Position numbers and translations under genes: made by a program. The notes under the pieces are model-generated. The model was given only the letters and a program-made list of their open reading frames with translations, did not search any database and was not told the origin of the DNA. Shown piece by piece: positions 3-63,667 of a stretch of DNA of 64,000 nucleotides (position 1 is the first letter of the stretch; each line of letters starts with the position of its first letter). Source of the DNA: a virus; the IMG/VR virus record IMGVR_UViG_3300040815_002027; one strand, given 5' to 3'.

Positions 3-176
3 TTAAAAAAATTGCGTTTATCTGATGTTGTAAAATCGTTGCCTAAAGACACAGACGGATGCAATATAAACAGTGTTAGCAACTATTTTCACTGCCAAAG
101 AGAAGAAGAGATGGAAAGTAAATGTCAAACACAATGTGAACACTGTAAAGAATATTACAAACCATTAGAGCAATAA
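3..176 (+). CDS. 3' end of a small Cys-rich hypothetical protein (partial), reading through two GTT junction-like sites
   Basis: Manually translated open frame LKKLRLSDVVKS...CNINSVSNYFHC...CQTQCEHC...LEQ*; stop lies just before the AAC element at 187. Confidence 0.6.
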   Translation, partial: LKKLRLSDVVKSLPKDTDGCNINSVSNYFHCQREEEMESKCQTQCEHCKEYYKPLEQ

Positions 177-279
177 TATTACTGCCAACGTTTTGGCTAT
201 GTGCCGTATGACGATAGGAATATGGACATATAGCCGTTGTTGTGCATAGTAGCGGATTAATTAACTAAAGTTTGAATAA

Positions 280-465
280 ATGAAATTACAATTCTTAACA
301 ATCGAAATTGATGGAAAATGCTTTGACTTACCAAAGGATATGCAGATTCCGCAGAAAGGTAGCACTGTATTTATTGAGGGTAAAACAGGGATAGTTGAAA
401 ACATTCACTACCATATAGTAGACGGAAAAGTACACATGATAAGCATTTTTGCTACGAAAGGGTAG
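280..465 (+). CDS. hypothetical protein (cargo of GTT...AAC segment)
   Basis: ORF track, 61 aa; fills segment 239-479. Confidence 0.75.
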   Translation: MKLQFLTIEIDGKCFDLPKDMQIPQKGSTVFIEGKTGIVENIHYHIVDGKVHMISIFATKG

Positions 466-476
466 CTATTATGCAC

Positions 477-497
477 AACTATTTGTTAATCCAAGTT
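477..497. repeat. AACTATTTGTTAAYCCAAGTT conserved site, copy 1 (others at 1295-1315 and 11680-11700)
   Basis: Three copies, identical except one base, each directly after a gene 3' end finishing in AAC. Confidence 0.85.
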
Positions 498-520
498 ATT
501 AAGATAAAAAACAATAAAAG

Positions 521-682
521 ATGAAAAAGTACAGAATTACAATTAGAACCAGTTTTGGGTCATTTGAGATTGATGACATTGAAGCACAAGATGAGGATGA
601 GGCATTTGATAAGGCTTGTGAAGAGGCTAAAAAAGAAATTGATTGTGCAAAACTGGATGAAGTTTATGAGTACGATTCTTAA
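521..682 (+). CDS. small acidic hypothetical protein (53 aa, below ORF-track cutoff)
   Basis: MKKYRITIRTSFGSFEIDDIEAQDEDEAFDKACEEA...YDS*; A-rich leader. Confidence 0.75.
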   Translation: MKKYRITIRTSFGSFEIDDIEAQDEDEAFDKACEEAKKEIDCAKLDEVYEYDS

Positions 683-734
683 TGGTGCATAACGGTACAG
701 TATAACAGTAGTGCGGATAATTAAAAACAATAAT

Positions 735-941
735 ATGGATAAGTACACGAAAAAAGCGGTGTTTAGTTACTTAAAGAAGTATGACCACATAGCAAACGAA
801 GAGGACTTTATAGAAGTTACTGAATGGAAAAACGGTGAAGGATTTGATGTAGAGATAGTTGGAAAATTAAGTACAAGGTTTCAATTAACTTGGGGTGAAT
901 ACACCGCTTTGAAGAAGTTGGTTAAAAAACTTGATGGTTAG
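735..941 (+). CDS. hypothetical protein inside the loop of an AAC...GTT hairpin segment
   Basis: ORF 711-941; ATG 735 preferred; stop overlaps right IR arm. Confidence 0.75.
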   Translation: MDKYTKKAVFSYLKKYDHIANEEDFIEVTEWKNGEGFDVEIVGKLSTRFQLTWGEYTALKKLVKKLDG

Positions 942-1039
942 CATTACTGTTATACATTGTTGTAGTGTCGTTTTAATGCACTACAACGGCTACAGGTATG
1001 GCAATGTAATTTTACGGATTTGAAACACGGAAATTAATT

Positions 1040-1276
1040 ATGGACAAGATAGATAGATTAAAGCAATTACTTCTGACACACAGAACAGAAGATATAAGCA
1101 AATTAACATTTGAAGAAAGGATTGATTTTGACGATGCGTTTGCACAAGAGATAGTAAAATTATTTGCTATACCTGATGTTATAGAGCCGAAGGGAAAGTT
1201 AAAATGCGAATGTAAAGATGAGTGGATGGAAGATGTTATTTATGTTCAGTGTAGTAAGTGTGGTGAAAAGTACTAA
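1040..1276 (+). CDS. chimeric hypothetical protein with C-terminal Cys-rich zinc-ribbon-like module
   Basis: ORF crosses the GTT junction at 1178 (LFAIPD|V); CEC...CSKC at C-terminus. Confidence 0.75.
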   Translation: MDKIDRLKQLLLTHRTEDISKLTFEERIDFDDAFAQEIVKLFAIPDVIEPKGKLKCECKDEWMEDVIYVQCSKCGEKY

Positions 1277-1331
1277 CGCATTTTAATTCTCTATAACTAT
1301 TTGTTAATCCAAGTTATAAAAATAAGGAACA

Positions 1332-2430: not shown

Positions 2431-3135
2431 ATGAAAGACTTAAGAAAATTCTTATCTACAACTGCGAAACAGTATTTGAATGAACAAGCATCATTAGAAA
2501 ATGTGAAACTAAATGATAATTTTTGGGAATGGTTTGGTAATAGTAAAGTTGTTGATAAAGATGGGAATCCAATGATTTGTTATCATGGAACACCAAAAGG
2601 TGGTTTTACTGAATTTAAACCAAAAACTGGTTATAAAGGTAAATCAAAACAACAAGTTGATTTAGGTTCGCATTTTTCAATTGATAAAGAATATGCTTCA
2701 GGATATGCTGGTGATAAAAAAACATCAAAAGTTTATGAATCATTTTTGAGAATAGAAAATCCGTTATATACTAATCAAATGTTTTATAGAGAGGATAATG
2801 AAAAATTATTTCTCAATTATTTGAATTTTATAACCAAAACATTCAAATTAAAATTAGGTGGTGATTACTACTATAACAAAAATGGAGATAAGCAAAATGA
2901 ACCACAAAATATTATGCTCAATAGTTTTTTGATTGATAAAATACCATCAAATAAACTTTATAATAGTTTAATAGAATTTGGTTTTGATGGTGTTTTTCAC
3001 GAACCATATAATAGGGAGGGGTTGAGTCATTTTAAAAAACATCCATTGGCATACATAATTATAGAACCGAACCAAGTTAAATCAATTGATAATGATGGTA
3101 GTTGGGATGTAAATGATAATAATATTTATTCTTAA
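2431..3135 (+). CDS. ADP-ribosyltransferase-like protein (ART-PolyVal type)
   Basis: FWEWFGNSKVVDKDGNPMICYHGT, HFS..KEYASGYA, GFDGV, PNQVKSIDNDG motifs. Confidence 0.75.
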   Translation: MKDLRKFLSTTAKQYLNEQASLENVKLNDNFWEWFGNSKVVDKDGNPMICYHGTPKGGFTEFKPKTGYKGKSKQQVDLGSHFSIDKEYASGYAGDKKTSKVYESFLRIENPLYTNQMFYREDNEKLFLNYLNFITKTFKLKLGGDYYYNKNGDKQNEPQNIMLNSFLIDKIPSNKLYNSLIEFGFDGVFHEPYNREGLSHFKKHPLAYIIIEPNQVKSIDNDGSWDVNDNNIYS

Positions 3136-3266: not shown

Positions 3267-4010
3267 ATGAAAACAGTTATATTAGGAGACATCCACGGAA
3301 CAAATTATTGGCAAACTATAATAAACTTCGAGAAACCTGATAGAGTTGTGTTCGTAGGAGATTATTTTGATTCTTTTGATATTCCTTACGATAAGCAGAT
3401 AGATAACTTCCTGGACCTCATAGAGTACAAGGAAAAAAGTGGGGGAGAAGTCATACTACTAATAGGTAACCACGACTATCATTATCTACCCTATATAAAC
3501 GACACATATACATCAGGCTATCAATCTAAATATGCTCATTTAATAAAACAAGTAGTAGAAACTAACTTACACCATCTACAGATAGCCTATCAGTTTGATG
3601 ACTTTCTAATAACACATGCAGGAGTAAGTGAAGAGTTTATGGATAATAACTTTGATAAGTGGTCTGAGGAAACTATAGTAGAACATCTTAATGATTTATT
3701 TAAATATAAACCTAATAAGTTTTTATTTAATGGTCTTGACCCTTATGGAGACGATACTTACCAGTCTCCTATATGGATAAGACCTAAAAGTCTTATGAGA
3801 GCAAACAAGACATCAGAACTAAAGAGAAGGTATGTTCAAGTAGTAGGGCATACTCAAGTAAAGGAAATTGATACGAAGGGAGGTGCTACGGGAGGAAGGT
3901 ATTATTTTATCGACTGCTTATCTACGAGTGGGCAGTATATGATCGTAGATGAAGATTCGTTTATTAATTTTAAAAGTTATAGAGATTATGATAAAGAAGA
4001 TACTGAGTAA
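3267..4010 (+). CDS. calcineurin-like metallophosphoesterase
   Basis: GDIHG, GDYFD, GNHD, THAG, VGHT motifs; ATG 3267 preferred. Confidence 0.9.
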   Translation: MKTVILGDIHGTNYWQTIINFEKPDRVVFVGDYFDSFDIPYDKQIDNFLDLIEYKEKSGGEVILLIGNHDYHYLPYINDTYTSGYQSKYAHLIKQVVETNLHHLQIAYQFDDFLITHAGVSEEFMDNNFDKWSEETIVEHLNDLFKYKPNKFLFNGLDPYGDDTYQSPIWIRPKSLMRANKTSELKRRYVQVVGHTQVKEIDTKGGATGGRYYFIDCLSTSGQYMIVDEDSFINFKSYRDYDKEDTE

Positions 4011-16998: not shown

Positions 16999-17631
16999 GT
17001 GAGACTAGTTTCCCTACTTCCTATTAGAGAGTCTGTAACTTCCAAGTTTTCTTCTATGATCAAGTCTAATCCAGGGCTTATTACAAAGACTTTACTACCC
17101 ACTTCAGTTCTTATGTTAATACCTTTATTAGCTAATAGTAGGAGTGTTAAGTATTTGGTTCCAGATCATAAAGACACTTTGTTAAGTTTTTGGCGAAGGT
17201 CTATTAAGTATTTAGGAAGTAGTGTAATTTCTATAAAGGAGTATGATATAGACTTGGATAAGTTAACTCCAGAAATTGTTGGCGAGATGTCTGCATCTTC
17301 TGTTGATATTATAACAGCCAGGGTAATCTTAGATTTGCTTTCCAAAGATATTTTAACAAAAGTTAAGGTTAGATCAGATAAGGTAAGAAAAGCTGTGTCG
17401 TATTTGGTAAAGGATATTACCAATTTAAAGGATATTGACGATAGTGCTATAGATGCGTATTTAGAGTCTTTAAGGGATGGGAGTAATACTTTTTCTTATA
17501 ATGGCATTCAGTATAATACCTATTTAGAAGATAGTCCTATTCAGATTGCAAAAGCAGAATTAAGTGATAAGGCAAGTGATCATAAAAAAGTTGGCGAGAT
17601 GGTAGACGAATTAGAAAAACTGTTAAAATGA
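16999..17631 (+). CDS. hypothetical protein
   Basis: ORF track, GTG start downstream of TATTTATA. Confidence 0.7.
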   Translation: MRLVSLLPIRESVTSKFSSMIKSNPGLITKTLLPTSVLMLIPLLANSRSVKYLVPDHKDTLLSFWRRSIKYLGSSVISIKEYDIDLDKLTPEIVGEMSASSVDIITARVILDLLSKDILTKVKVRSDKVRKAVSYLVKDITNLKDIDDSAIDAYLESLRDGSNTFSYNGIQYNTYLEDSPIQIAKAELSDKASDHKKVGEMVDELEKLLK

Positions 17632-18281
17632 TAAAACTAAAAGACATACTTTTAGAGGTTAGTAAGGTGTTTTATCACGGCACTCCAGATTCCAGGCAGA
17701 TATCAAAACAAGCTGGTTTTGAAAGAAAGACAAAAACTATAAACTATATAGAGGATTTGGATAGATACAAAGAATTACAAAGACAGCTTAAGGATACAGA
17801 CTATGCTAATATAGGACAGATAGGTAAAGAGATAAAGTCTTTAGAAAAAAAACATACTTTTAGATCTCCTATATTTTTAACAGATACTCTTTCAGTTGCA
17901 AAGACATATAGTAAGAAGCCTGCCTGGGGTAGTCAGAATAGTACCCCTAAAGTGTATAAGGTAAAGACCAGTCCTTCAAAGATATTAACCTTAGATATAA
18001 AAGGTAAGAGGTTTGATTTTTTAGATGTAGGTTTAGTTGCAGGTGCGTTTAAAAGTGCGGGAGAAGATACTAACACCTTCCATAATTTATTACAAAAGTA
18101 TGAGTACTATCAGTTAGGTAACATAGAAGGAGTACCTACAGACTCTTTAGTGGCTATTGCAGACGAGTTAGGCTTTGACTGTATTGATGTTTTAAATGCA
18201 GAGGATAGTTATAATGTAGGAAACAAATTATCAACAATAAGAATTATGTTGGAACCAAACGATATAAATATTATAAGATGA
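17628..18281 (+). CDS. ART-fold-like protein with MIKLKDILLE leader
   Basis: FYHGT, IFLTD...AKTYS, GFDCI motifs. Confidence 0.65.
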   Translation: MIKLKDILLEVSKVFYHGTPDSRQISKQAGFERKTKTINYIEDLDRYKELQRQLKDTDYANIGQIGKEIKSLEKKHTFRSPIFLTDTLSVAKTYSKKPAWGSQNSTPKVYKVKTSPSKILTLDIKGKRFDFLDVGLVAGAFKSAGEDTNTFHNLLQKYEYYQLGNIEGVPTDSLVAIADELGFDCIDVLNAEDSYNVGNKLSTIRIMLEPNDINIIR

Positions 18282-19297
18282 TTAAATTAAAAAACATTGT
18301 AGAGAGTATCTTAAAAGAAAGAATATCAGATATAGTATACCACGCTACGTATCTTAATAAAGGCCTAAGCATATTAAAACAAGATGCTTTTGTTTTAGCT
18401 ACTGTAACTGGTACTAAATCTGAAAAAGAAAAAAATAAAGGTAAAAACTACTATATGTCTTTAGCAAGATCTATGAGCAGTGGTTATAATCTTTTTAGAA
18501 ATGCTAGACAAATTATATTTTTTAAACTTGATGGAAAATTGTTGGGAAATAACTTAAAAGGAGGTCCTATAGATTATTGGGATGGTATGCATATGATGAA
18601 TATAAGTAATATGACAAATAAAGAAATGGAAGATAGAATATTCTCGGATAAACCTAAAATAGAAAATGCTTCTAAATATATAGAAGAGGTATATATTTTT
18701 TTAGGAGAAAAAAAATTTAAAATGAATAAAGATGAAAAAGGTATACCTACTGGTACATATACATCCTGGTATGAATTGGAAAATATGTTATCAGATAATA
18801 CAAAAAACATTATATTACAAATACTTGTACTACTAAAAAAAAGAGGCATACCTTTTTACATATACTTTAATAAATCAGATTTATTATCAAACAATAAGAA
18901 AAATGCCGTCAATTTTAAACAACTTAATTTAGGAGATAGAAAAGGTAATTTAGAATACAGTTATGACCGCTCAGATGTAAATAAATATAGGTATTTGGAA
19001 AAATCTCAATTATTAATATACTTATATTATTTTAACAATATAAATAAAATTAAAAACATTGTTCCAAAACACTATAAAGATATTGTAAAATCTAAAGTAT
19101 ACGATATAACTAAGTTACATAAAAACGATTTTCTAATGAGTGAGTATATTAGAAGTTTAAAAGGTGAGATCCACAATGAAAAATCTAAAAACAACAACTA
19201 TATTAATAGGCTCAATAAAATAATGAGAGATGAAAAATTAACTAATTTAGAAGACCTTGTTACCTTAATATCAAAAAAATGGGATAAAATATTATGA
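18278..19297 (+). CDS. leader-bearing protein, paralog of 27198 (possible ART fold)
   Basis: ERISDIVYHAT, YYMSLAR, LDG, EDRIF shared with 27198. Confidence 0.7.
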   Translation: MIKLKNIVESILKERISDIVYHATYLNKGLSILKQDAFVLATVTGTKSEKEKNKGKNYYMSLARSMSSGYNLFRNARQIIFFKLDGKLLGNNLKGGPIDYWDGMHMMNISNMTNKEMEDRIFSDKPKIENASKYIEEVYIFLGEKKFKMNKDEKGIPTGTYTSWYELENMLSDNTKNIILQILVLLKKRGIPFYIYFNKSDLLSNNKKNAVNFKQLNLGDRKGNLEYSYDRSDVNKYRYLEKSQLLIYLYYFNNINKIKNIVPKHYKDIVKSKVYDITKLHKNDFLMSEYIRSLKGEIHNEKSKNNNYINRLNKIMRDEKLTNLEDLVTLISKKWDKIL

Positions 19298-19779
19298 TTA
19301 AATTAAAACAAATACTAAACACCTTAACAGAATCATTAGAAAGATTACAATTCTCAAACTGGGAGATTCCTGACTTAAAGCAGCTTAAGCTAGAGTTTAA
19401 GGTAGAGCATCAGCTAAAAAGAAATAACTTTTTTGAAAGTGAAGAAGATTTCTTAGAAAGAGTAGATAAAGGTGAGATAATAACAATAACAGAGCAAGAT
19501 GATAGAAGTATATCTTATAGATCAAGAACAAAGAGCTTTGATCAGCTACATAATCTTATAAGAAGTTACGCTTCTTATCCAGAGTTTAGAAATGAGGATA
19601 CTTTAAAAAATATTTACAAAGGTTTTAGAGAAGGTAAGGCTATGGATTTACCTATTGTAATTGAGTTTAGTAACGGAGCAAGAAGAATATTCTCTGGAAA
19701 TACAAGATTAGATGTAGCCTTTCAGTTAGGGGTTACTCCTGTAAAGGTTCTTCTTATAAAGTCTGACCGAGAATATTAA
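19294..19779 (+). CDS. ParB/Srx-like domain protein with leader
   Basis: LPIVI...IFSGNTRL motif. Confidence 0.55.
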   Translation: MIKLKQILNTLTESLERLQFSNWEIPDLKQLKLEFKVEHQLKRNNFFESEEDFLERVDKGEIITITEQDDRSISYRSRTKSFDQLHNLIRSYASYPEFRNEDTLKNIYKGFREGKAMDLPIVIEFSNGARRIFSGNTRLDVAFQLGVTPVKVLLIKSDREY

Positions 19780-19831
19780 TATCCGCTGCGTATTTTGTGG
19801 CGGAGAAGTATATTTATATTAAAACAACAGT

Positions 19832-20932
19832 ATGAACAAACAACTTATTAAAGAAGAAATCGCCAAAATACAGAGAATTGCAGAGGTAAAACAGCAATTA
19901 GACGGCAAATATGAGTATCCTTCCTATACAAATGAGCAAATTGAGGTCTTAAAGGAGGGTTTTTTAGACAAAATGAAGGCTAAGTTTAAGGATAAGTTTA
20001 CATATGATCCTAACGTAAAAGCTATCTATTCTTATATAAAAGGTGGCGGAAAAGGCAATTTAAGGCTTCAAAACTACCCTTATGGTACATTTCCACCTGA
20101 ATTGAAGAAAGTTGGCGGCAATTTTACTGTATCTTCTTCTAAAATAGAGGAGTTTTCTCCTAAAATGCAGATAGATGGAGATTTAACTGTTATGAAAACA
20201 GATATAAAGAATTTAGGAAAAGACTTAACTATTAAGAATGACCTAGCTATTATAAACTGTACTAACTTAAATGTATTTCCTAATAAGATTTTTGTTGGGG
20301 GAAGTATTGCAATCAAGGACACTCCGATAAAATCTTGGCCCAAAACTATATCAAAGATCAACGGTAATCTAGGATTATATAAAACAGATGTAGCTGAACT
20401 ACCTTCAGGTCTATCTGTAAACGGAGTTCTAGATTTAAGAGACACTCCGATAAAGAAGATTCCAGATAATTTATTTGTAGCAGATAGTTTGTATGTGACT
20501 GGATGTCCTAATCTTAAGGGTGTATTCAGTTTTGGAAAAAATATTAGAGTAGATAAGAATGTTCATTTAAAGAAGACTCCTTTGATGAAGAGCTTAAGTA
20601 CTCAGGATGATGTAAAAAGTTTTGTTGAAGCTACTGGTATGCAAGTAGGTGCGATACACTACGGTAAAAAATATCCTGTTGCTTTTAATGCTGGAAAAAA
20701 ATCAAAGAAGGTAACAGCAGACATTGGAGGTAAGATCAGAGCTAAGCGAACAGCTCAAGGAGGTGGAGGGTTTGGCGGACAACTTGGAGCAGGTGGTAGA
20801 GCTGCTGGTGGAAGTAGAAAGAAGAGTATCTTCAACATCTTCAGAGAAAGTTTAAAAGAGGCTGAATATAGTCCAGAGGAGTTAAAGGAGATCGAAGGTG
20901 CTATTTCTATCTTACAAAAATATGATGCCTAA
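19832..20932 (+). CDS. leucine-rich-repeat-like protein with Gly-rich tail
   Basis: Repeats LPSGLSVNGVLDLRDTPIKKIPDNLFV. Confidence 0.75.
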   Translation: MNKQLIKEEIAKIQRIAEVKQQLDGKYEYPSYTNEQIEVLKEGFLDKMKAKFKDKFTYDPNVKAIYSYIKGGGKGNLRLQNYPYGTFPPELKKVGGNFTVSSSKIEEFSPKMQIDGDLTVMKTDIKNLGKDLTIKNDLAIINCTNLNVFPNKIFVGGSIAIKDTPIKSWPKTISKINGNLGLYKTDVAELPSGLSVNGVLDLRDTPIKKIPDNLFVADSLYVTGCPNLKGVFSFGKNIRVDKNVHLKKTPLMKSLSTQDDVKSFVEATGMQVGAIHYGKKYPVAFNAGKKSKKVTADIGGKIRAKRTAQGGGGFGGQLGAGGRAAGGSRKKSIFNIFRESLKEAEYSPEELKEIEGAISILQKYDA

Positions 20933-21486
20933 TGAACATATTAAAGGTAAGTAAGAATAAGCCTTTAGTAGATGCTATTGCCAACAGACATCCTATATCT
21001 TTTATGTATTATGGAGACAAGAACAGAGATGTACTTGTAGGTAAGAGGCAGTACGCTGAACCTGTTGCTATAGGAATCTCAAAAAAAGGCAATCTTATGA
21101 TAAGATGTTACATAGAGCCTCCAACCAAGTCTAAGTCAGGCTATAAGAGGAGTTACTGGAGAACTTATTTAGTCTCTGGTATGAGAGGTGTGGTTGTTAT
21201 GAAATCTAAAACTTTTGATTTAACAAGACCATTATATAATGGTGGAGGGGATGATAGGACTATGGTAACTACACTGTTTTCTAATGAGCCTGGTGCTGAT
21301 CCGTACAGAACTCCAAAACAGATTCAGGCTGATGAGAAAAAGAAGCAAAGAGAAAAGGACACTCAGATTTCAGATAAGATAAAGAAGTCTATACAAGATA
21401 AGGTTAAAAAAGCAAGAGGGAACTTGAGTGCGAGGGATAAGGCCTTTATCAAACAGCAACAAGAAAAGTTAAAAAGAAAAAGATGA
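20932..21486 (+). CDS. WYL-domain-like protein
   Basis: ISFMYYG, R.YAEPVAIG, IRCY, WRTYLVSGM pattern. Confidence 0.6.
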   Translation: MNILKVSKNKPLVDAIANRHPISFMYYGDKNRDVLVGKRQYAEPVAIGISKKGNLMIRCYIEPPTKSKSGYKRSYWRTYLVSGMRGVVVMKSKTFDLTRPLYNGGGDDRTMVTTLFSNEPGADPYRTPKQIQADEKKKQREKDTQISDKIKKSIQDKVKKARGNLSARDKAFIKQQQEKLKRKR

Positions 21487-22088
21487 CAAAGCTATCTGAG
21501 TTAAAAAAAGAAACGCTTTTAAATACTGAAGAGTATTATGAGGTAGCTAAGGCTATAAGAGCTGGCAAACCTATAGACTTTTATTACTCACAAAAAAGTT
21601 CAGTATCTCCTTTATACTGGGCTGGTCCTGGTGCTGGACCTGAAGCTTCAAAAAGAATAACCGTCCAACCCTATGCTTTAGGTATATCTAATAAGTATAC
21701 TGGATCTGGAGTCTTTATGTTGGCAATGATAAGAAAAGGAGAAACCTTTAGTATGTCCAACACAGGAATTTGGAGAACTTATTATTTACATAGAATGGCA
21801 GATATAGAGCAGTCTTCTGAAAGGTGGGTAACGCCTAATAAAAGACCGCCAGATGATAAATTATTTAAAAATATAGGAGATATAACAATGGTACACAGAG
21901 AATTAAACAGCATACCTCAAGATGACACTCTAGATACAGACGTAGACTATGAGATAAGCGAAGCTGAAGAAGCGGATATTAAAAACCTACAAAAAGATGT
22001 AGAGGAGTTTAGTAAGAATAAGGAGAAGATAAAGACAAAGTTATCTGATATTGCCAAACAACTTTTAGGAGATAAAGACAAGAAATGA
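21483..22088 (+). CDS. WYL-domain-like protein (paralog)
   Basis: IDFYY, RITVQPYALG, WRTYYLHRM. Confidence 0.6.
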   Translation: MTKLSELKKETLLNTEEYYEVAKAIRAGKPIDFYYSQKSSVSPLYWAGPGAGPEASKRITVQPYALGISNKYTGSGVFMLAMIRKGETFSMSNTGIWRTYYLHRMADIEQSSERWVTPNKRPPDDKLFKNIGDITMVHRELNSIPQDDTLDTDVDYEISEAEEADIKNLQKDVEEFSKNKEKIKTKLSDIAKQLLGDKDKK

Positions 22089-22651
22089 TAAAGATATTAC
22101 TTTTTACATTTGCCCCCATCTTTTTGATGGCACAAGATAACTCTCTATTTTATAGTTTTGGCTTTTATATGAACGATGTAAGAGACTTAGATGGGAGAAC
22201 TCCTATATCTTTAGAGATAGGTGCTGATATGGACACTTACACTGCGTCTTTGCAATCAGATGTAAGAAGAGGAAAGACTTACATAGGGAATTATGTTTCT
22301 AACTCTGATCCTGTTAGTATAGACACCAGGTATGTAATTAATGGTAAGATAAATAAGAATCATTTATTAGGAGGGTATGGGCAGTTTACAACAACTGCAA
22401 TGGCCATAGATGGAGCTGCCATAGGATTATCTTATAGGTATATAAATAAGCCTACAAAAGTTTTTTCTTTTTTTGCCGACTTTTTTTTGCCTGTATTAGG
22501 CTATAACAAAATAAGAAAGTGGAACCCTGTTGACGAGCGTGTAAATAGTATTATCTTTGGACATAACCTTAATCCTGCCTACAAAGCCAGGAACACAGAA
22601 ATTAGGTTTAAAGTAGGATTAGTAATTAGAAACTTTATAAATGAAAGATAA
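22085..22651 (+). CDS. putative exported outer-membrane beta-barrel-like protein
   Basis: Signal peptide ending MA|Q; alternating beta pattern; paralog of 25039. Confidence 0.55.
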   Translation: MIKILLFTFAPIFLMAQDNSLFYSFGFYMNDVRDLDGRTPISLEIGADMDTYTASLQSDVRRGKTYIGNYVSNSDPVSIDTRYVINGKINKNHLLGGYGQFTTTAMAIDGAAIGLSYRYINKPTKVFSFFADFFLPVLGYNKIRKWNPVDERVNSIIFGHNLNPAYKARNTEIRFKVGLVIRNFINER

Positions 22652-23153
22652 AGAAGAAATGTCTCCACAAGAGAAAAAGATGGAGATGTTAAAAAAACAT
22701 TACAAGTCTTTACCTCTTCCTAAAGTAAGAGATATACAGGCGCAGTTAAAAAGAAAGTCTAAAAGATACCAGGACTTAGGTACAAAAGTTCCTAAAGATG
22801 TCACGTCTTTACAAAGAACATTAACTTATATTATCAGAGCAAAAGAAGCAGAAGCTATAGAAAAAGGTGCGGTGAAGGAAAGCATTGATTATGGGGTTTT
22901 AAAGGATCTAATAACAAGTAGGATAAAGGTAAAGCCTTTAAAAAAAGTAAAACAGTCTATTTTTCCAAATGCTATAGATGTTTGGAAGTTATCAGAAAAT
23001 ATTTACTTAAAGACTACAGACGATAATAACCTAGTATTATTTAGTATGTCTGCTGATGATAATTTAAAACTTAAGTACAAAGAGTTGAAAAAAATTGGCG
23101 GAGATGAAGATCTCTCTAACTTTTTAAATTTAGCAAAAAGAAAAAAAGTATGA
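22641..23153 (+). CDS. hypothetical protein
   Basis: ORF track. Confidence 0.75.
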   Translation: MKDKEEMSPQEKKMEMLKKHYKSLPLPKVRDIQAQLKRKSKRYQDLGTKVPKDVTSLQRTLTYIIRAKEAEAIEKGAVKESIDYGVLKDLITSRIKVKPLKKVKQSIFPNAIDVWKLSENIYLKTTDDNNLVLFSMSADDNLKLKYKELKKIGGDEDLSNFLNLAKRKKV

Positions 23154-23971
23154 AACAAAACACTTTTTACAAATTATATGATAAGTTAATATTAGAAACT
23201 ATAAGCATCCTATCAGAATCTCAGTTAGACCAATTAAAGGCAACTTTTGTTGGGGAAGGAGAATTAGACAAACCTGTTAAGATAGGAGGCAAAAAAGAGA
23301 AAGGCAAAAAAATGTCGGAAGATGTTTGGAATAAAATCTCTAATTTAACTGTATCTCGTGCTAATAAGGATAATACCAAATTAAAAGATTTACCTCAATA
23401 TTTTATCTGGTTGTTAAAAATGGTAGCAGCAGAAAAACTCCCAAAGGAAGATATAGACCAATTTGGAGATTCCAGTTTTGGAAAAGGTCTTATATCCAGG
23501 TTTATTAGTAAAAAGATAGCAAAGTATCTAAAACAAAGAGATATAACAAAGTATAGTAATATAGAGGATTTAAGAACTGACGTAGCTGATGCAGAAGACC
23601 AATTACCCTACGAGTATGAACAAGGAGAAAATTTAGTGCCTAAAGAAGGTATAGATGAGTTAAAACAAGTTGGAGTAGACCTTATAGGTACTGTTGCAGG
23701 ATATCAATGCTTTAAAGTATCTCAAGGAAATGATAGTGAAGAGACTTTTAAAGTATATACTAAATATTTGGCAAAATGTGCAAGTGGGGATATCACTTTA
23801 GATATTTGTACTATGAGAAATTATGATAGTTTTAAAAAGTACATAAAAAATGAAGATTATTATATATTCTTTAACACTAATGATAAAAAAGCACCTTACC
23901 AGTTTGGATACGGTAGTCAGCAGTTTCACGATGTAGGAAATAGAAGTGTCATTGCCGCTGATTATGAATAA
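23150..23971 (+). CDS. hypothetical protein with leader-like N-terminus
   Basis: ORF track; KLILE, ICT, YQF, QFHD motifs. Confidence 0.75.
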   Translation: MKQNTFYKLYDKLILETISILSESQLDQLKATFVGEGELDKPVKIGGKKEKGKKMSEDVWNKISNLTVSRANKDNTKLKDLPQYFIWLLKMVAAEKLPKEDIDQFGDSSFGKGLISRFISKKIAKYLKQRDITKYSNIEDLRTDVADAEDQLPYEYEQGENLVPKEGIDELKQVGVDLIGTVAGYQCFKVSQGNDSEETFKVYTKYLAKCASGDITLDICTMRNYDSFKKYIKNEDYYIFFNTNDKKAPYQFGYGSQQFHDVGNRSVIAADYE

Positions 23972-23982
23972 AGTATAGGATA

Positions 23983-24597
23983 ATGAAAAAACACATATTA
24001 CAATTTTTTAAATTTTTAAAAGATAAGGAAGGTAAATCAGCTCCCTTAAAACTCAAGCTCTTAGACCCACAAACTTTTGGTAAACCCACAAAAAATCAGT
24101 TAAATGTAAAAGGTGACTTAAATTTAAGTAAGACAAATATAAAGGAACTACCTCAAGGACTACAGGTGAGTGGGGATTTAGATTTAAGCGGTTGCACATC
24201 TCTTACAAAACTTCTACAAGGACTACAGGTGGGTGGGAGTTTAGATTTACAAGGCTGTACTTCTCTAAAAGAACTACCTCAAGACCTTAAGGTGGGTGAC
24301 GGTATAAATTTAATGGATTGCACATCTCTTAAAGAATTACCACAAGACCTTTATGTGGGTGAAGATTTAGATTTAGAAGGTTGCACATCGCTTAAAGAAC
24401 TCCCACAAGGACTACAGGTGGGTTGGAGTTTAAATTTAATGGATTGCACATCTTTAAAAGAACTTCCACAAGGTCTTAAGGTGATTGATAATTTATGGTT
24501 AGTAAACACACCTATAGCAGATAAATACTCAAAAGAAGAGATAAAAAAGATGATAGAAGATGGGGGAGGATTTGTTGAAGGTGAAATTAATGTATAA
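23983..24597 (+). CDS. LRR protein with 6 repeats of about 21 aa
   Basis: xVxxxLxLxxCTSLKELPQxL repeats. Confidence 0.9.
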   Translation: MKKHILQFFKFLKDKEGKSAPLKLKLLDPQTFGKPTKNQLNVKGDLNLSKTNIKELPQGLQVSGDLDLSGCTSLTKLLQGLQVGGSLDLQGCTSLKELPQDLKVGDGINLMDCTSLKELPQDLYVGEDLDLEGCTSLKELPQGLQVGWSLNLMDCTSLKELPQGLKVIDNLWLVNTPIADKYSKEEIKKMIEDGGGFVEGEINV

Positions 24598-25022
24598 TGA
24601 AAAAACACATAGCACAATTCTTTAAATTTTTAGAGGATAAGGAAGGTAAGCCTGCTCCGTTAAGACTCAAGCTCTTAGATCCTCAAACATGGGGTAAACC
24701 TACGAAGGAAGATTTAAACGTTAAAGGTGATTTAGATTTATCAGAAACAAACATAAAAGAGCTTCCACAAGGACTTAAGGTAGATAAGAATTTATGGCTA
24801 GATGGTTGTACATCGCTTGAAAAACTACCCCAAGGTCTTAAGGTGGGGTGGCTTTTAGATTTAACAGATTGCACCTCCCTTGAAAAACTACCCCAAGGAC
24901 TTGAGGTGGGTATGGGTTTAAATTTAACAAACACACCCATAGCACAAAAATACTCAAAAGAAGAAATACGAAAAATGATCGAGCGTGGAGGTAAATCTGT
25001 TAAAGGTCAAATTATTATATAA
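24597..25022 (+). CDS. LRR protein with 3 repeats of about 21 aa (tandem paralog)
   Basis: Same N- and C-caps as 23983. Confidence 0.9.
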   Translation: MKKHIAQFFKFLEDKEGKPAPLRLKLLDPQTWGKPTKEDLNVKGDLDLSETNIKELPQGLKVDKNLWLDGCTSLEKLPQGLKVGWLLDLTDCTSLEKLPQGLEVGMGLNLTNTPIAQKYSKEEIRKMIERGGKSVKGQIII

Positions 25023-25038
25023 TGGAAAAACACAAATT

Positions 25039-25671
25039 ATGAAACAGATTATAACAACATTCCTACTACTATTAGGAATCACAACCTATTCTCAAACAGG
25101 GTGCTATACTTTTCCTTCAAGTACAAGATCATCGGTAGGTGTTTTAAAACTTGGAGCAGGTATTATGCCATTTATGATGCAAGACAATGACCAGCTTCCT
25201 ATTAGAATGTTTATGATGGAGATGGAGTATAAAACTTGGGGAGGAGGAGTTCAACTTGATGCGAGATCAGGTAAGACATATCTATCAAAAACATTTCCCT
25301 ATGCTCCTTCCATATCTATGGATTCAAGACTCTACGGCTATCATAATATGAATGATAATGTATCTATAGGAGGATACGGACAGATTAACTCTACAAGTAT
25401 GTGGGTGGATGGATGTGCTTTGGGAGGACTCCTACGATACTCACAAGACTTTAAGAACGTTGGTATGTTTGGACAAGTACAACTACCTTTCTTTAGTATG
25501 CAAAGAAGACCTCCCTCAACGGTAGCAAATGGGATGGAGCATCAAAAACTATATTGGTTTGGTATTCCTGAAAATTTTGGGCAAGATGACTTTCACAAAA
25601 CAAGACCATCAGAATATAGATTTACAGTTGGAGTATATATAAGAATAAACAGTAGAATATATCCATATTAA
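25039..25671 (+). CDS. putative exported outer-membrane beta-barrel-like protein
   Basis: MKQIITTFLLLLGITTYS|Q signal; shares RxGKTY, GGYGQ, DGxAxG, ExRFxVG with 22085. Confidence 0.55.
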   Translation: MKQIITTFLLLLGITTYSQTGCYTFPSSTRSSVGVLKLGAGIMPFMMQDNDQLPIRMFMMEMEYKTWGGGVQLDARSGKTYLSKTFPYAPSISMDSRLYGYHNMNDNVSIGGYGQINSTSMWVDGCALGGLLRYSQDFKNVGMFGQVQLPFFSMQRRPPSTVANGMEHQKLYWFGIPENFGQDDFHKTRPSEYRFTVGVYIRINSRIYPY

Positions 25672-25684
25672 TAAACCCAGCCTT

Positions 25685-26185
25685 ATGATTAAACTAAAGG
25701 AAATATATAATACATATATCATTTCAGAATTTACAAAATCTGATTATATAGAAATACCTTATGGTAAAGATGATGGTATAGATTATGATACTTTAGAGGA
25801 TGAAGGGTTAGAAGATTATGAAGATGATATACTTGACCAAATAGATACCTTAGAAAAAGAGTCTGGAATACATTTTACAAGAGATAGGTTTATAGATACA
25901 ATATTATTTCATAAAAAAGATAATAAGGTAGTTGGAGTGTTATACTATTCTGATGATACTGATAAATTTACCTTTGATGTAATAGTCTCTAAAGATTATA
26001 GAAATAAAGGAATAGCTTCTTATTTAGTTAAATTGGCTTTAGATTTTTATAACTTTGATACAGAAATGTTTAATAATAAAATAGAAGTAGATGCAGTTAA
26101 TCCGATTATGGCTAATTTACTAAAAACTAAATTTAATTTTAAAGTAAAAGAAAAACTACCTGGTAGAGAAATACTCACACGATAA
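25685..26185 (+). CDS. GNAT acetyltransferase with leader
   Basis: VIVSKDYRNKGIASYLV acetyl-CoA-binding motif. Confidence 0.8.
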   Translation: MIKLKEIYNTYIISEFTKSDYIEIPYGKDDGIDYDTLEDEGLEDYEDDILDQIDTLEKESGIHFTRDRFIDTILFHKKDNKVVGVLYYSDDTDKFTFDVIVSKDYRNKGIASYLVKLALDFYNFDTEMFNNKIEVDAVNPIMANLLKTKFNFKVKEKLPGREILTR

Positions 26186-26196
26186 GACAACTAATT

Positions 26197-26775
26197 ATGA
26201 TTAAACTAAAGCCACTTGTAGAAGGTATTTTAAAAGAAAGATATGATATTTCCAAATACGACAATATGTTAAAACAAAAATATGATATAGATTATTCAGA
26301 CTTAAATTATTTAGGAAGTGGAGACTTTGGTGAAGCATATTCTGATGATGAAGGGAAGGTCTTTAAGTTTACAAGTTCTAAAAGCGAGGCATCATTAGCA
26401 AAAGAAATATTGAAAAGTAACTCAAAGTATGATGCCTTTGCAGATATCTACGATGTAGTAGATTTAGATAATAGAGTGACACTCATAGTACAAGAAGAAT
26501 TAGAAGAAGACAGTTCTATAGAAGATATGTACTATCAAGTAGAAAATATATTAGCTAATCAAGAACTTCCTATACAGTATATACATAATTTAGATTATGA
26601 TGAATTAGACGAAGAAATTGATTCAGAGTTAGAAAAATTTATTAACGATTTAGAAGATATAGTTAGGTCGTATAGAATGTTAGGTATAGAAGCCTCTGAT
26701 ATACGCCCAGAAAATATGGGATATGATAAATCAGGTAAACTAAAAGCATTTGATATAGATGATAAAAATAAGTAA
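26197..26775 (+). CDS. minimal Ser/Thr protein kinase-like protein with leader
   Basis: LGSGDFGEAY Gly loop, VFK, DIRPENMG catalytic loop, FDID. Confidence 0.8.
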   Translation: MIKLKPLVEGILKERYDISKYDNMLKQKYDIDYSDLNYLGSGDFGEAYSDDEGKVFKFTSSKSEASLAKEILKSNSKYDAFADIYDVVDLDNRVTLIVQEELEEDSSIEDMYYQVENILANQELPIQYIHNLDYDELDEEIDSELEKFINDLEDIVRSYRMLGIEASDIRPENMGYDKSGKLKAFDIDDKNK

Positions 26776-26776
26776 G

Positions 26777-27205
26777 ATGATTAAACTAAGACAACTATTA
26801 AAAGAAGCCAAGAAGAAACTCTATCCTTGTCCTAAACCAACAAAGGATTTAAAACTTAATACAAAGAATAGAAACAAGGCTATTAAAGCAGACCACATTA
26901 AGTATGGTCCTTTAAACGTAGATAAGCCAGGAAACTTTTGGAAACAAATAGCAAAGTTTTGGAACACAGAAGAAGATGCAGCAAAGTCTTCTTTATGCGG
27001 TAACTGTGCTGCATTTGATGTATCTCCAAGAATGAAGCAGTGTATGCCTGGAGAACTACAAGATGATGATGGAGAGTTAGGATATTGTTGGATGCACCAC
27101 TTTAAGTGCCACTCTGCAAGGACTTGTAGAACTTGGGCGAAGGGTGGACCTATAAAAACAGATGATGTATCTGAAACTTGGCAAAATCAAAAATCAGATG
27201 ACTAA
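26777..27205 (+). CDS. Cys/His-rich metal-binding protein with leader
   Basis: MIKLRQLLKE; CGNC, GYCWMHHFKCHSARTCRTW. Confidence 0.75.
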   Translation: MIKLRQLLKEAKKKLYPCPKPTKDLKLNTKNRNKAIKADHIKYGPLNVDKPGNFWKQIAKFWNTEEDAAKSSLCGNCAAFDVSPRMKQCMPGELQDDDGELGYCWMHHFKCHSARTCRTWAKGGPIKTDDVSETWQNQKSDD

Positions 27206-28220
27206 ATTAAAGATATTATTAGAACAAGTATTAAAAGAGCGTATAACTGATAAAGTGTATCATATAACTACTATAGAAAATGCTCTAAATATCTTACAAT
27301 CAGATTCTTTTAAAGCATCTAAAGTGTATGCTAAAGACAAAGAAAAGGAGATAAACCCAGAAGGTTATGATTATTATATGTCTACTGCCAGGGTAAGAAA
27401 TAGTATTTATATTAAAGATCACGCATCCTCATTCTCTGAAGTTATGTTTGTATTAGATGGTAATAAGTTAAATCAGAATTTCAAAGGAAGAGCTGTGAAT
27501 TATCACGCAGGTAGTTCACATTCGCCTACAAGAAGGTATTCAGAAGATGAAGATAGAGTGTTTTTGAAAAAACCCTTTATAAAAAACTTCTCAAAATATA
27601 TAAAAAGAGTAGATATATTTATTAAAGAATCTACAAATAGTAATAATATTAATTGGATAGCGGCTAGAAAAATTATTTTAAAATGTAAAAAATATAATAT
27701 AGACTATTTAATATTTAATAAAAGGGGAGATTTTATAAAAGGAGACAAAAAATTATCTATCCCTTTTGAAGATGTTAAAGGCTATATGAAAGGAGACTTA
27801 CCAAAACGTAGACCTTTTCTAGATACTTTAGATAGAAAAGAGAAACAGTATGTAACATCTTTTATATTTCTATACCATTCTAAGTCTTTATATGATTTCT
27901 ATGTTAAAAATAAAACAAAAGGCTATCCTTATATTTTTCCTAATAATAATTTAAAACCAGAAGAGTTAAAAAAATGGATAAGCAATCCTAAGAATAAGGC
28001 TGATTTATTATCATCTCTAGTACGTGTACTAGACGAGTTTGGTGATATAACAAGCTATTCATTCTTTTTTAGTATACGTGATAAAGATAATACACACAAA
28101 AGAATAAGTGATGCTATAGAAAAAATATTTAGAACAGAAAGAGTAAGAAGTTTAGATGATAAGTTAGAGTCTAAAATAATAAACAAGTGGAAAGATATAT
28201 TAGATAATTATATAGAATAA
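27198..28220 (+). CDS. leader-bearing protein, paralog of 18278
   Basis: MTKLKILLEQVLKE start; VYHIT, YYMSTAR, EDEDRVF. Confidence 0.75.
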   Translation: MTKLKILLEQVLKERITDKVYHITTIENALNILQSDSFKASKVYAKDKEKEINPEGYDYYMSTARVRNSIYIKDHASSFSEVMFVLDGNKLNQNFKGRAVNYHAGSSHSPTRRYSEDEDRVFLKKPFIKNFSKYIKRVDIFIKESTNSNNINWIAARKIILKCKKYNIDYLIFNKRGDFIKGDKKLSIPFEDVKGYMKGDLPKRRPFLDTLDRKEKQYVTSFIFLYHSKSLYDFYVKNKTKGYPYIFPNNNLKPEELKKWISNPKNKADLLSSLVRVLDEFGDITSYSFFFSIRDKDNTHKRISDAIEKIFRTERVRSLDDKLESKIINKWKDILDNYIE

Positions 28221-28221
28221 G

Positions 28222-29319
28222 ATGACTAAATTAAAGATATTATTAGAACAAGTTTTAAAAGAGCGTATAACTGATGAAGTCTATCACCTGACTACCACAC
28301 GAAGAGCTTTGTCTATTTTAGAGTCAGATACTTTTAAAGCATCTACTGTATTTGGAACATATTTAGATACGAAACAATTAATTAGAGAAATATTAAAGGA
28401 GAAAACAATTAATAATTTGGGATTAATGACCCAAATATTATATCATGGCACAAAGTATGAATTTGATAAATTTGATTTAAATTTTTTTAATAGTGGTTCT
28501 GGAGATGGTGGATGGCTAGGTTATGGTATTTATTTAACTAATGATTATGAATATGCTGAATCATATGGTAATGTTTTGGAGTGTAAGATTAATATTAAAA
28601 CCCCATATATTATTTCAGAATTTAGTTATAGTAGAAGTCCAGAAAAATTAGCCAATGAATTAGGTGTTAAAAATGCTAGAGAAATTACAAAAAAATTAAT
28701 AAAAGAGGGCTATGATTCAGTTGTTTTAACCTATCCAGATAAAGGTTACACTAAAGACGATGAATATAGTGAATTTATAGAGATATGCGTTTTTAATCCA
28801 AATGATATTCAAATAATGAATAATTTAAATGAACAACAAATATCCTTACATAAAAGTGAGTTGTTTGCCTTAGAAGATGATATACTAAAAAACATTCCAG
28901 ATGGTTACTTATATCATGGTTCAAATAACATATCTTACTTTAATGATACGTCTGATATAGATACATCAAACAATACGGTTAATGCTAAAAGTAAATATTT
29001 ATTTTTAACACCAAACAAGTTAACAGCATTCAATTATTCTACAATAAATAATGGTATGAATGTTAAAATAAGTGATAAAAGTGGTGTTTTATCGTTTGCT
29101 TTAAAAAAAGCTAAAGGTAAGAAATTAACATCAAACGAACTAAAATATAGTAATATGGTTGAGTTTGAAGAGATATTAGATTATTACAAAAACAAAGGCT
29201 ATGATTATGTGATAATAGTACCAGATGGTAGAAACTATGCTATACTAAATCCTAGTATATTAAAAATAGTAAGTAAAACATATACATATGATATTATTAA
29301 TAATCAAACTATAAATTAA
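28222..29319 (+). CDS. chimeric protein: leader plus two ART-like domains
   Basis: LYHGT..GYGIYLT..YAESYG..GYDSV and LYHGS..LFLT..AFNYS..GYDYV. Confidence 0.7.
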   Translation: MTKLKILLEQVLKERITDEVYHLTTTRRALSILESDTFKASTVFGTYLDTKQLIREILKEKTINNLGLMTQILYHGTKYEFDKFDLNFFNSGSGDGGWLGYGIYLTNDYEYAESYGNVLECKINIKTPYIISEFSYSRSPEKLANELGVKNAREITKKLIKEGYDSVVLTYPDKGYTKDDEYSEFIEICVFNPNDIQIMNNLNEQQISLHKSELFALEDDILKNIPDGYLYHGSNNISYFNDTSDIDTSNNTVNAKSKYLFLTPNKLTAFNYSTINNGMNVKISDKSGVLSFALKKAKGKKLTSNELKYSNMVEFEEILDYYKNKGYDYVIIVPDGRNYAILNPSILKIVSKTYTYDIINNQTIN

Positions 29320-61671: not shown

Positions 61672-62244
61672 ATGATAAAACTAAAAGAACTACTAGAAAG
61701 ACTCCAGACTGAACAAGATATAGAGGGATTTAAAACCCCAGAAAAATATGCCACATCAGGACAGTATTTTGAAAATGGTGATGAACCAAGCATATTAGGG
61801 AAAAGAGTATGGATACATACTAATAGAAGGCACAGAAATGATAAAGTTAATGGTATAATAGGTATATATAAAAGTACAGACAAAGGGTCTAAAATACCTA
61901 CTGTAATCGGATACACTAATCAAATAAGACTTGTTGGGGATATTTTTTTTGATGTTAGTCAATCAGGAGTAGATAGAATAAAAAAAACAGATAAAAGAAC
62001 ATTAGTAGCAGGTATATCAGGTATTGTAGGAAAGGTTAACAAAGGTTCAACATCAGGAATGGAAAAAATAACTTTTAATCCAAAATCTAAGCATATTAAA
62101 GGATTTCATAAAGTAGGAGGAGATGTAGAGGGAGGTGGTGAATTATTGTCAGCGGATGAAGTTTATATGGAGGCGGACTCATATACAAGTGATGGTGGTG
62201 AGGTTAGATGGAACGTTTATGCAAAAGGTCTTAAGTACAAATAG
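61672..62244 (+). CDS. hypothetical protein with MIKLKELLE leader
   Basis: ORF track. Confidence 0.8.
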   Translation: MIKLKELLERLQTEQDIEGFKTPEKYATSGQYFENGDEPSILGKRVWIHTNRRHRNDKVNGIIGIYKSTDKGSKIPTVIGYTNQIRLVGDIFFDVSQSGVDRIKKTDKRTLVAGISGIVGKVNKGSTSGMEKITFNPKSKHIKGFHKVGGDVEGGGELLSADEVYMEADSYTSDGGEVRWNVYAKGLKYK

Positions 62245-63207
62245 TATGATAAAACTTAAAGAAATTTTGCAAGAGGCTAAAAGAGATGCTTCTTTAGTAA
62301 AGAACTTTAAGGAATTTGTGAATGAATCAATTTACTATCATGGGACAACATTACCTAAATCAAACCCAAAAATTGACTCTTTTAAAACTAAAACTGGATT
62401 TAGAAGTAATTCAATGACAGGTTTAAAACGTTTGGTTAATTCTCCTTGGATATTTTTTACTGATGATTATCATTTAGCACAAAAATTTGGCTCGGCTAAA
62501 ACAGCTGGTTTATATCACGATAAAGGTGATTTTTCACATAAAACAGTTGTTTTAGAGTATGATATTGACGAATCTAAATTAAATATATTAGATTTAACAA
62601 TGGGTGATTTTATTGAAAAAATTGAAAAAATTGTAGATAGCGACATACTAAATAATTATTATGGTAGTATGGTTGCTTTTTATGACATTGAAATTGAAGA
62701 TACTTGGGAGTTGTTAGATGATAATATCATAAGTAATATTATAATTAAAAAAGGGTTTGATTCAGTTAAGTTAATTGAAAGTGGTGGTAAATCATTAGCC
62801 ATACATATAAGCAAAGTTAATACGGTAGTCAAACAAAGACAATAGTGTGTAGTAAAATTATTTTTGTTTTTCATCACGAAACTCAATTATAAGTACCAAT
62901 ATAGCACTTGTACATAACGGTTGAGAATATAAGTAGTATCCGATTTGAAACAAGAAACTTAAAGTTTAATATAAATGTTAAACAGAAGTAGTAGCTTAAA
63001 TGAAACACATAACTCGGTTATTACTTATATTCTTTGTTATGTACAGGTGCGGTGGGTTTAAGACAAAACTTAATTAGAACCACAGACAAAAAACAAAAAT
63101 AATTGAGATATACATATAAACTTATTAACTTGTAGTATGATAAAACTTAAAGAAATTTTGCAAGAGGCTAAAAGAGATGCTTCTTTAGTAAAGAACTTTA
63201 AGGAATT
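62242..63207 (+). mobile_element. cassette-like insertion bounded by a perfect 75-bp direct repeat (62242-62316 = 63133-63207) and containing a complete attC-like hairpin (62904-63050)
   Basis: GCACTTGTACATAAC / GTTATGTACAGGTGC outer arms; AGAATATAAGTA / TACTTATATTCT inner arms. Confidence 0.75.
62246..62845 (+). CDS. ART-like protein fused to the duplicated leader of the downstream HD gene
   Basis: YYHGT, IFFTDD..LAQKFG, GFDSV; true ATG 62246. Confidence 0.75.
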   Translation: MIKLKEILQEAKRDASLVKNFKEFVNESIYYHGTTLPKSNPKIDSFKTKTGFRSNSMTGLKRLVNSPWIFFTDDYHLAQKFGSAKTAGLYHDKGDFSHKTVVLEYDIDESKLNILDLTMGDFIEKIEKIVDSDILNNYYGSMVAFYDIEIEDTWELLDDNIISNIIIKKGFDSVKLIESGGKSLAIHISKVNTVVKQRQ

Positions 63208-63667
63208 ACTTCTTATGTTCCCCAAGGAAGTTAGAGATAAGGTTATGCGTTTAAAATGTGTTCCTCAAAATCCTAAGTGGCATCCAGAAGGAAATACTTT
63301 AAAACATACAATATTAGTTGTAAGGAGAGCTATAGAGCATTCAAATAAGGATGCAGATATGATTATAGCAGCACTATTTCATGATGTAGGTAAGTATGAT
63401 ACTTTAGGTACGAATCCAAAAACAGGACAACCGACTGCTTTTGGACACGAAAAAGTTTCAGCCGAGGAAGTAGAAAAATATAAAGATGCTATAGAGTCTC
63501 TTGGAGGAAATGTGAGTAGAATAAAAGCTATAGTAAAAGACCATATGAGAATAAAAAAATATGGGGAGATGAGACAAAAAAAGAAAGAACAAATGGAAGC
63601 TATGGAGATTTTTGATGACTTGAAATTCTTTTGTAACAAACTAGATAAAGGAGGAATAGACATATGA
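63137..63667 (+). CDS. HD-domain protein (type seen in CCA-adding enzymes) with leader
   Basis: QNPKWHPEGNTLKHT, ALFHDVGK, GHE, HM. Confidence 0.85.
   Translation: MIKLKEILQEAKRDASLVKNFKELLLMFPKEVRDKVMRLKCVPQNPKWHPEGNTLKHTILVVRRAIEHSNKDADMIIAALFHDVGKYDTLGTNPKTGQPTAFGHEKVSAEEVEKYKDAIESLGGNVSRIKAIVKDHMRIKKYGEMRQKKKEQMEAMEIFDDLKFFCNKLDKGGIDI

Follow-up and report, generated by a model that had tools for sequence, protein, structure and literature searches.

An integron-like array of alternating hairpin and cassette tiles in a large tailed phage, with apparent exchange at two joints

Integrons recombine attC sites whose recombined (bottom) strand is built in the order RYYYAAC, spacer, stem, loop, stem, spacer and GTTRRRY, with cleavage at the first AAC (PMC5027507). 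Flipped-out bases of these sites are docked by the I2 helix of the integrase (PMC7790495), and Nivina et al. (2016) found that once such bases are removed, some attC sites are recombined by IntI1 to nearly the same extent on either strand (PMC5027507). Among phages, Polaribacter phage P12002L was listed by Qi et al. (2023) as carrying a CALIN, that is, an integrase-less attC cluster; that paper reports two of its sites as ordinary attC, and attC1 of P12002L as the one of six sites without recombination by IntI1 (PMC9892861).

The window, by which we mean the whole 64,000-nt stretch of DNA analysed here (IMG/VR virus record IMGVR_UViG_3300040815_002027), begins with an array of tiles joined alternately at AAC and GTT triplets. 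Because class B tiles, read on the + strand, correspond to attC sites and class A tiles to cassette bodies, this alternation is ordinary integron anatomy. The array and its relatives share with integrons the AAC/GTT cores, the matched cassette ends, the hairpin with asymmetric spacers, a strand favoured by G·T pairing, and the placement of arrays beside a tyrosine recombinase and a docking site that is not a hairpin. They differ from integrons in that the phage recombinase is shorter at I2, a G·T wobble replaces the extrahelical bases, the ends pair over ~15 bp, phage genes lie on the folding strand, the recombinase lies downstream and co-oriented, hairpin loops hold genes or start codons, both joints are exchanged, and there are several docking sites per genome. 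The system behaves like an integron and yet is no member of that group, since the integrase insertion, the flipped-out bases, the direction of the genes and the single crossover all differ: where integrons use one crossover, relatives of the window show exact exchange at both AAC and GTT. The structure-directed, integron-like shuffling proposed in the first-pass annotation of this sequence is supported by these exact breakpoints and by the exchange of both joints.

Our preferred reading, to which we assign a probability of roughly two in three, is an integron-like system that would act mainly at AA|C and less often at G|TT, with exchange at the second joint yielding new two-module proteins. 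The first-pass annotation had called the system possibly undescribed, which holds in part. The sites themselves were already in P12002L (PMC9892861), whose attC1 is a B tile of the present phage family with 6/3 spacers and whose genome contains 12 further B tiles by our parser; the available part of Qi et al. (2023) describes neither a dedicated recombinase nor genes encoded in loops, and neither the A stem nor fusions in frame (PMC9892861). For the recombinase, the loop genes and the fusions we found no publication in a literature search whose coverage ended at subscription journals, and in which Qi et al. was the one related work.

Tiles, genes and site anatomy

B tiles were parsed by the pattern AAC-spacer-arm...arm-spacer-GTT, which returned three of them in positions 1-1400: 187-241, 691-961 and 985-1180, with arms of 16-22 bp and an AAC-side spacer longer by 3 nt (2 nt in 187-241). 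Dinucleotide shuffles of the same 1,400 positions (n = 500) gave no B tile in 495 cases, one in five and two or more in none, and shuffled phage DNA gave one in 340 kb, compared with 944 from real loci totalling 2.9 Mb; the possibility that chance would yield such repeats equally often, allowed for in the first-pass annotation, found no expression in these controls. One caveat is that the loci used to train the junction weight matrix included a sister contig of the window.

Three A tiles are firm, all of them on the + strand, as are the other elements and genes of the array. Tile 239-479 has 15-bp matched ends, in which 14 of the 15 end positions form Watson-Crick pairs and the remaining one a G·T pair, the empty 29-nt tile 959-987 has matched ends of 9-10 bp, and tile 1178-1297 has 9 bp. 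The stretch 75-189 is a weak or hybrid A tile in which six of the first seven end positions pair, and 495-693, which had also been proposed as an A tile, was rejected, its ends matching over 5 bp only. The latter is no A tile because 477-499 is a third kind of element, a putative attI-like docking site that starts with AAC followed by TATTTGTTAATCC and is repeated over 23 bases at 1295-1317. We interpret this repeat as a docking site because sister genomes carry other A tiles ending at its AAC.

The genes lie within this framework as first annotated, namely one in an A tile (280-465), one in a B loop (735-941) and one running from a B tile into an A tile (1040-1276). At the left edge, 3-176 is the 3' part of a 101-aa gene whose start lies upstream of the window; it runs through the right arm of a further B tile and across the joint at GTT 27-29, and its C-terminal part occupies the weak tile 75-189. 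For the front half of this gene, another locus (L319) has a different A tile joined exactly at GTT 27-29, and 27-62 is similar to the start of yet another A tile, complete in L318. The B hairpin 187-241 is empty, with fold z-scores of -3.1 on the + strand and -1.1 on the - strand. The 61-aa gene 280-465 within A tile 239-479 has no family match in Pfam or PHROG. A 53-aa gene (521-682) lies between the first docking site and the next AAC joint, outside any matched A tile; in L318 (2003-2756) it is present twice, with the docking site in front both times, and the two together may form a mobile unit. The B hairpin 691-961 holds in its loop a whole 68-aa gene (735-941), homologues of which occur outside cassettes in many phages. 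The family of the empty A tile 959-987 comprises more than 119 viral and 98 genome matches, with compensatory changes in the arms. The loop of B hairpin 985-1180 supplies a start codon and 46 codons running through GTT, and the resulting 78-aa gene (1040-1276) consists of two modules, a front half from the B tile and a Cys-rich back half from A tile 1178-1297, with GTT read as valine. A GCGGAT box stands between left arm and start codon in both tile classes (249-260 in an A tile, 709-722 in a B tile) and is possibly an expression or binding signal. No Rfam family was found in a search of the window array.

Across the family, the ends of 549 A segments, taken between B tiles with no pairing filter, form pairs of all four types over about 15 bases, and positions 5-8 are paired in 82-87% of cases versus 26-47% in shuffles; pairing figures for the B arms carry some circularity, since pairing was itself a criterion for choosing B tiles. 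Both stems carry a conserved G·T pair, at position 11 of the A end (T in 98%) and 15 bases before GTT in the B stem (T in 97%). Since each wobble T is followed by TA seven bases further on, the A and B stems resemble two half-sites arranged around a spacer. The first-pass annotation had recommended folding both strands, and in 95% of sites it is the gene strand that folds better, with a mean advantage of 2.8 kcal/mol; among phage A tiles, 189 of 194 code on the better-folding strand. The AAC-side spacer is 2-4 nt longer in 664 of 693 sites, an excess larger than the corresponding difference in classical attC. B stems are without a bulge in 472 of the 693, and a bulge on the arm opposite AAC is seen in only about 80, at scattered positions; no conserved flipped-out base opposite AAC was found among the 693 sites, which have the conserved G·T wobble instead. 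The core ends RYYYAAC and GTTRRRY are present and matched within the cassette, as had been claimed from the window (5.1 of 6 positions pair with the tile's own end versus 2.5 of 6 with the preceding end). Inverted tiles number at most 9 of 778, most of them low-scoring. B tile lengths in all phage loci cluster near 46, 86, 123 and 190 bases, with gaps between these values.

Exchange at the AAC and GTT joints

Evidence for mobility comes from comparison among relatives, in which breakpoints fall exactly on AAC or GTT for every firm tile of the window. At AAC, B 691-961 and A 959-987 move as one unit in two loci (L003, L316), ending at AAC. The pair 985-1297 is precisely missing from three near-identical sister genomes (L313, L314, L317), in which the empty A tile abuts the docking site and the presence/absence difference breaks exactly at AAC. 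Among related A tiles at 317 loci, the upstream B was kept and the downstream neighbour changed in 8 pairs, both changed in 4, and the upstream neighbour alone changed in none. We conclude from these comparisons that the working cassette is B+A, mobile at AAC, and that GTT is a second, slower exchange point. Of the two interchangeable tile classes first proposed, the exchange of both joints is borne out and the equivalence is not: mobility is unequal, with B+A moving between identical copies and GTT swaps seen mostly between copies that are 3-20% diverged. In L200, at 3946, an AAC within the 3' end of an ordinary gene has received a B+A unit, much as integron cassettes insert at secondary (attG) sites.

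At GTT, the clearest case is B 985-1180, which has seven partner A families. It stands alone in L200 at 97.4% identity, where the match stops on GTT and the A tile beyond is unrelated (57.8%, a value inside the random range, the maximum of which is 62%); in L500, B and A are 86.7% and 91.7% identical to those of the window. The L200 swap is thus younger than the split from L500, since L200 shares the closer B yet has an unrelated A and L500 shares both. The L200 arrangement was read on 23 contigs, and an assembly chimera is therefore unlikely. Other tiles of the window behave likewise: B 187-241 stands alone in L142 (96% identity), flanked on both sides by other A tiles; A 239-479 stands alone in three loci (L303, L304, L305), preceded by unrelated B tiles, and copies of it at 90-93% identity lie behind four unrelated B tiles and have four different downstream neighbours; and the same A as 1178-1297 follows an unrelated B in L320. 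In a set of 990 units from 428 loci, seven of 26 A families have more than one B partner, all at 80-94% identity (7 of 18 below 95% identity and 0 of 8 above), and the alternative B tiles of one A family have only 1-4 nt in common before GTT. Coding-B families with more than one A number four among eight correctly parsed. These fractions are biased upward, because the A 239-479 family and the B 985-1180 family were fetched deliberately. Shared attC families are normal in integrons, and for this reason 451 B pairs in which both flanks differ were left out as proof of swapping at GTT, in favour of A families and coding-B families. The pairs L579/L166 and L350/L365/L366 were dropped as parse artefacts.

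The GTT joint also bears on protein structure. Of the B tiles from phages (n = 824), 124 enclose a complete gene and 191, about a quarter, contribute a start codon whose reading frame continues through GTT; in 148 of the 191, GTT serves as a valine codon. Behind frame-0 leaders the A tile is open in frame 0 in 226 of 238 units, as compared with 76 of 171 without a leader; of 52 frame-1 leaders, 45 precede an A tile of that frame; and the A tile has a start of its own in 20 of 237 cases behind a leader versus 231 of 510 otherwise. A single A family with fixed ends accounts for 55 units, in which roughly 47 B families are combined with roughly 50 interiors, every unit being in frame (a few mis-bounded). 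For the 78-aa gene of the window, homologues of the front half have at least nine other tails, and one homologue of the tail has another front half. Among related phages, then, one front half of a predicted protein occurs with many different back halves. Searches of the cassette proteins against Pfam, PHROG and Atlas gave no function, the only leads being weak zinc-ribbon matches below 0.9; a role in host takeover or anti-defence is our guess.

The strongest competitor to a two-joint system holds that AA|C alone is cut and B+A is the sole unit, so that new B-A pairs arise when cassettes are born or by phage recombination at short stretches held in common, and joins look exact as only exact ones keep both stems and the reading frame. 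The dominance of B+A, the absence of any A family at 95% identity or above that has changed its B, and the near-absence of inversions all fit such a history, and members of one B family have about 20 nt in common before GTT, a length sufficient for phage annealing proteins (Red/Sak-type recombinases). This account is nevertheless hard to reconcile with finding the same A behind unrelated B tiles that share 1-4 nt before GTT, in seven families and in L320, with a spacer before GTT that always remains with B, and with a 97%-identical B that has an unrelated A. We regard it as unlikely, and retain exchange at both joints as the better explanation.

Recombinases, mechanism and alternatives

No recombinase was found in the window, as the first-pass annotation had stated, nor in the 70.8-kb sister contig (43% complete) or the 20 kb further to the right. 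Tyrosine recombinases of any kind are present in 11 of 50 phage records with tiles and in 3 of 17 near-complete phages with tiles; given the latter fraction, the window array could depend on a visiting enzyme or be partly frozen. Eight of the 11 belong to one family of 264-290 aa, which lies directly after parsed tiles in seven of the eight. In a separate set of 64 loci fetched by the recombinase protein, the recombinase is preceded within 1.5 kb by a B tile of the same orientation in 62 and followed by one in 4, so that the tyrosine recombinase whose co-occurrence the first-pass annotation had suggested looking for does accompany arrays of the family. A conserved, attI-like site lies 50-67 nt before the recombinase start codon at 57 loci; the docking sites of the window have only their first six bases in common with it, and no recombinase beside them.

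The family recombinase has a full catalytic set. Its best sequence matches are archaeal XerA and XerD, with Xer scores of 146-206 bits at best against a cut-off of 220 for XerA and far below those of XerC and XerD, and a fold search placed VchIntIA first by a small margin. Against IntI it scores 100-165 bits (cut-off 265), with TIGR02249 below cut-off and split around model positions 180-239, and it is about 48 residues shorter than VchIntIA at the I2 helix, positions 176-209 of the profile spanning 179-260 of VchIntIA. Bacterial homologues (~40% identity) lie near chromosomal arrays of the same sites, in which genes run in the classical direction, opposite to that of phage arrays. Bacterial chromosomes with the same sites (L415, L420, L429-L432, L435) are mostly of Bacteroidota, with one Desulfitobacterium. 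The cultured Cellulophaga phage phi13:2 (L517, 1862-4600) has six B tiles followed by a 428-aa tyrosine recombinase, which was rejected as a member of the present recombinase family since it belongs to a different one.

Under the preferred reading, the folded single strand would be bound by a small tyrosine recombinase that comes from another part of the genome, from another phage or from the host. Its site would be a dumbbell, with an A stem (~15 bp) and a B stem (~20 bp), each bearing one conserved G·T wobble, on either side of an asymmetric spacer. Cutting of the gene-carrying strand mainly at AA|C would excise B+A units and insert them at docking sites or other AAC joints, and a rarer exchange at G|TT, most simply by a cut at the AAC of the opposite strand, would provide a B tile with a new A partner. 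The start codon within many B loops has a fixed frame relative to GTT, so that such swaps would create new two-module small proteins. Sequence comparison demonstrates the site anatomy, base-exact breakpoints at AAC and at GTT, the predominance of B+A, the frame matching and, within the family, the link between recombinase and array; single-strand folding as the substrate, an enzyme acting on the window phage and opposite-strand cutting behind the GTT swaps are what we would add to these. A second cut within the B half-site was considered and rejected, as the bases before GTT remain with B. We would put even odds on the fuller proposition that a single small, dedicated recombinase is responsible both for cassette movement at AAC and for in-frame re-pairing of protein halves at GTT, by single-strand recombination that dispenses with the I2 helix regarded as necessary for it, and so furnishes Bacteroidota phages with a combinatorial library of small proteins.

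The experiments of Nivina et al. (2016) offer a parallel, in that their sites likewise have no extrahelical bases, and cutting of both strands would place crossovers at both ends of the hairpin. Theirs, in contrast, is a laboratory side reaction that inverts cassettes, whereas the phage arrays show almost no inversions and apparently use their second joint productively. Opposite-strand cutting should also invert tiles, and the near-absence of inversions is thus the weak point of the two-joint model; perhaps inversions are purged, or perhaps something else produces the GTT swaps.

A Xer-like enzyme working on double-stranded or cruciform DNA by two strand exchanges, with the joints as the two ends of one overlap region, is improbable. 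XerA, XerC and XerD are the closest to the phage recombinase by sequence and have the full catalytic set and the compact catalytic domain; the two half-sites are pseudo-symmetric, and the insertion that in IntI blocks the second exchange is absent (PMC7790495). The phage protein is, on the other hand, below every Xer cut-off and the phage sites are not dif-like duplexes: their half-sites are brought together only by the folding of one strand over loops of 10-600 nt, the conserved G·T pair is meaningful on one strand only, and a second cut in the B half-site would carry the last 5 nt before GTT along with A, of which no case was seen.

Still less credible, and largely refuted, is an ordinary CALIN derived from a host integron and run by classical IntI. 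The core triplets are identical, no recombinase lies near the window array, and one mis-bounded P12002L site did recombine with IntI1 (PMC9892861), yet the full B-type site attC1 of that phage failed to do so. There are no conserved flipped-out bases, the genes are on the folding strand in nearly all phage A tiles, and the linked recombinase falls well short of the IntI cut-off. Least probable of all is that the inverted repeats are RNA structures controlling small early genes and the mosaicism generic phage recombination: the better-folding strand is indeed the coding one and a short common box precedes start codons in both tile classes, but breakpoints fall on the triplets to the base, gene-less empty tiles are conserved, the recombinase link is close to invariable, and Rfam has no such family.

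If the two-joint reading is right, it would amount to phage-encoded modular protein building by site-specific recombination across thousands of Bacteroidota phages, and would account for a sizeable group of small orphan genes in phages. It would also touch on two open questions about integrons: how cassettes gain their attC, given that the joint between site and body is here visibly exchanged, and whether the I2 helix is needed for single-strand recombination. With the cultured tile carriers P12002L and phi13:2 and the standard attC conjugation assay, these proposals can be tested now.

The phage genome and its relatives

The phage is a large tailed one, with a baseplate, an endolysin and a T4-type portal encoded to the right of the array; the 20 kb walked further to the right of the window contains structural genes only. 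The tile system is common in Bacteroidota phages (the 990 units above), and from the occurrence of the tile family the host is probably a member of the Bacteroidota. The window agrees with JGI contig Ga0436637_0000093, from base 288 of the latter, at 3,941 of 3,941 compared bases. A sister IMG/VR record (3300040856_002293; 70.8 kb, 43% complete) is ~98% identical to the window over the array.

Several other features of the window were recorded. The segment 2314-3316, comprising an ART-PolyVal gene (2431-3135) and its flanks, is represented by about 80 bases in a sister contig (L310), and a perfect 29-base tandem duplication (2320-2377) lies at the left edge of this indel. In L321 a homologue of the ART-PolyVal gene is followed by an AAC joint used for tile insertion, and the AAC matching it is at ~3214 in the window. 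In two regions (17628-29319 and 61672-63667) the same short N-terminal motif (MIKLK...) starts many genes, a second type of shared leader. An isolated B hairpin of the tile family, found by the parser on the + strand at 62916-63038 and distant from the array, lies upstream of an HD-domain gene and is preceded by an A-type right end, which suggests that the phage may have more insertion points.
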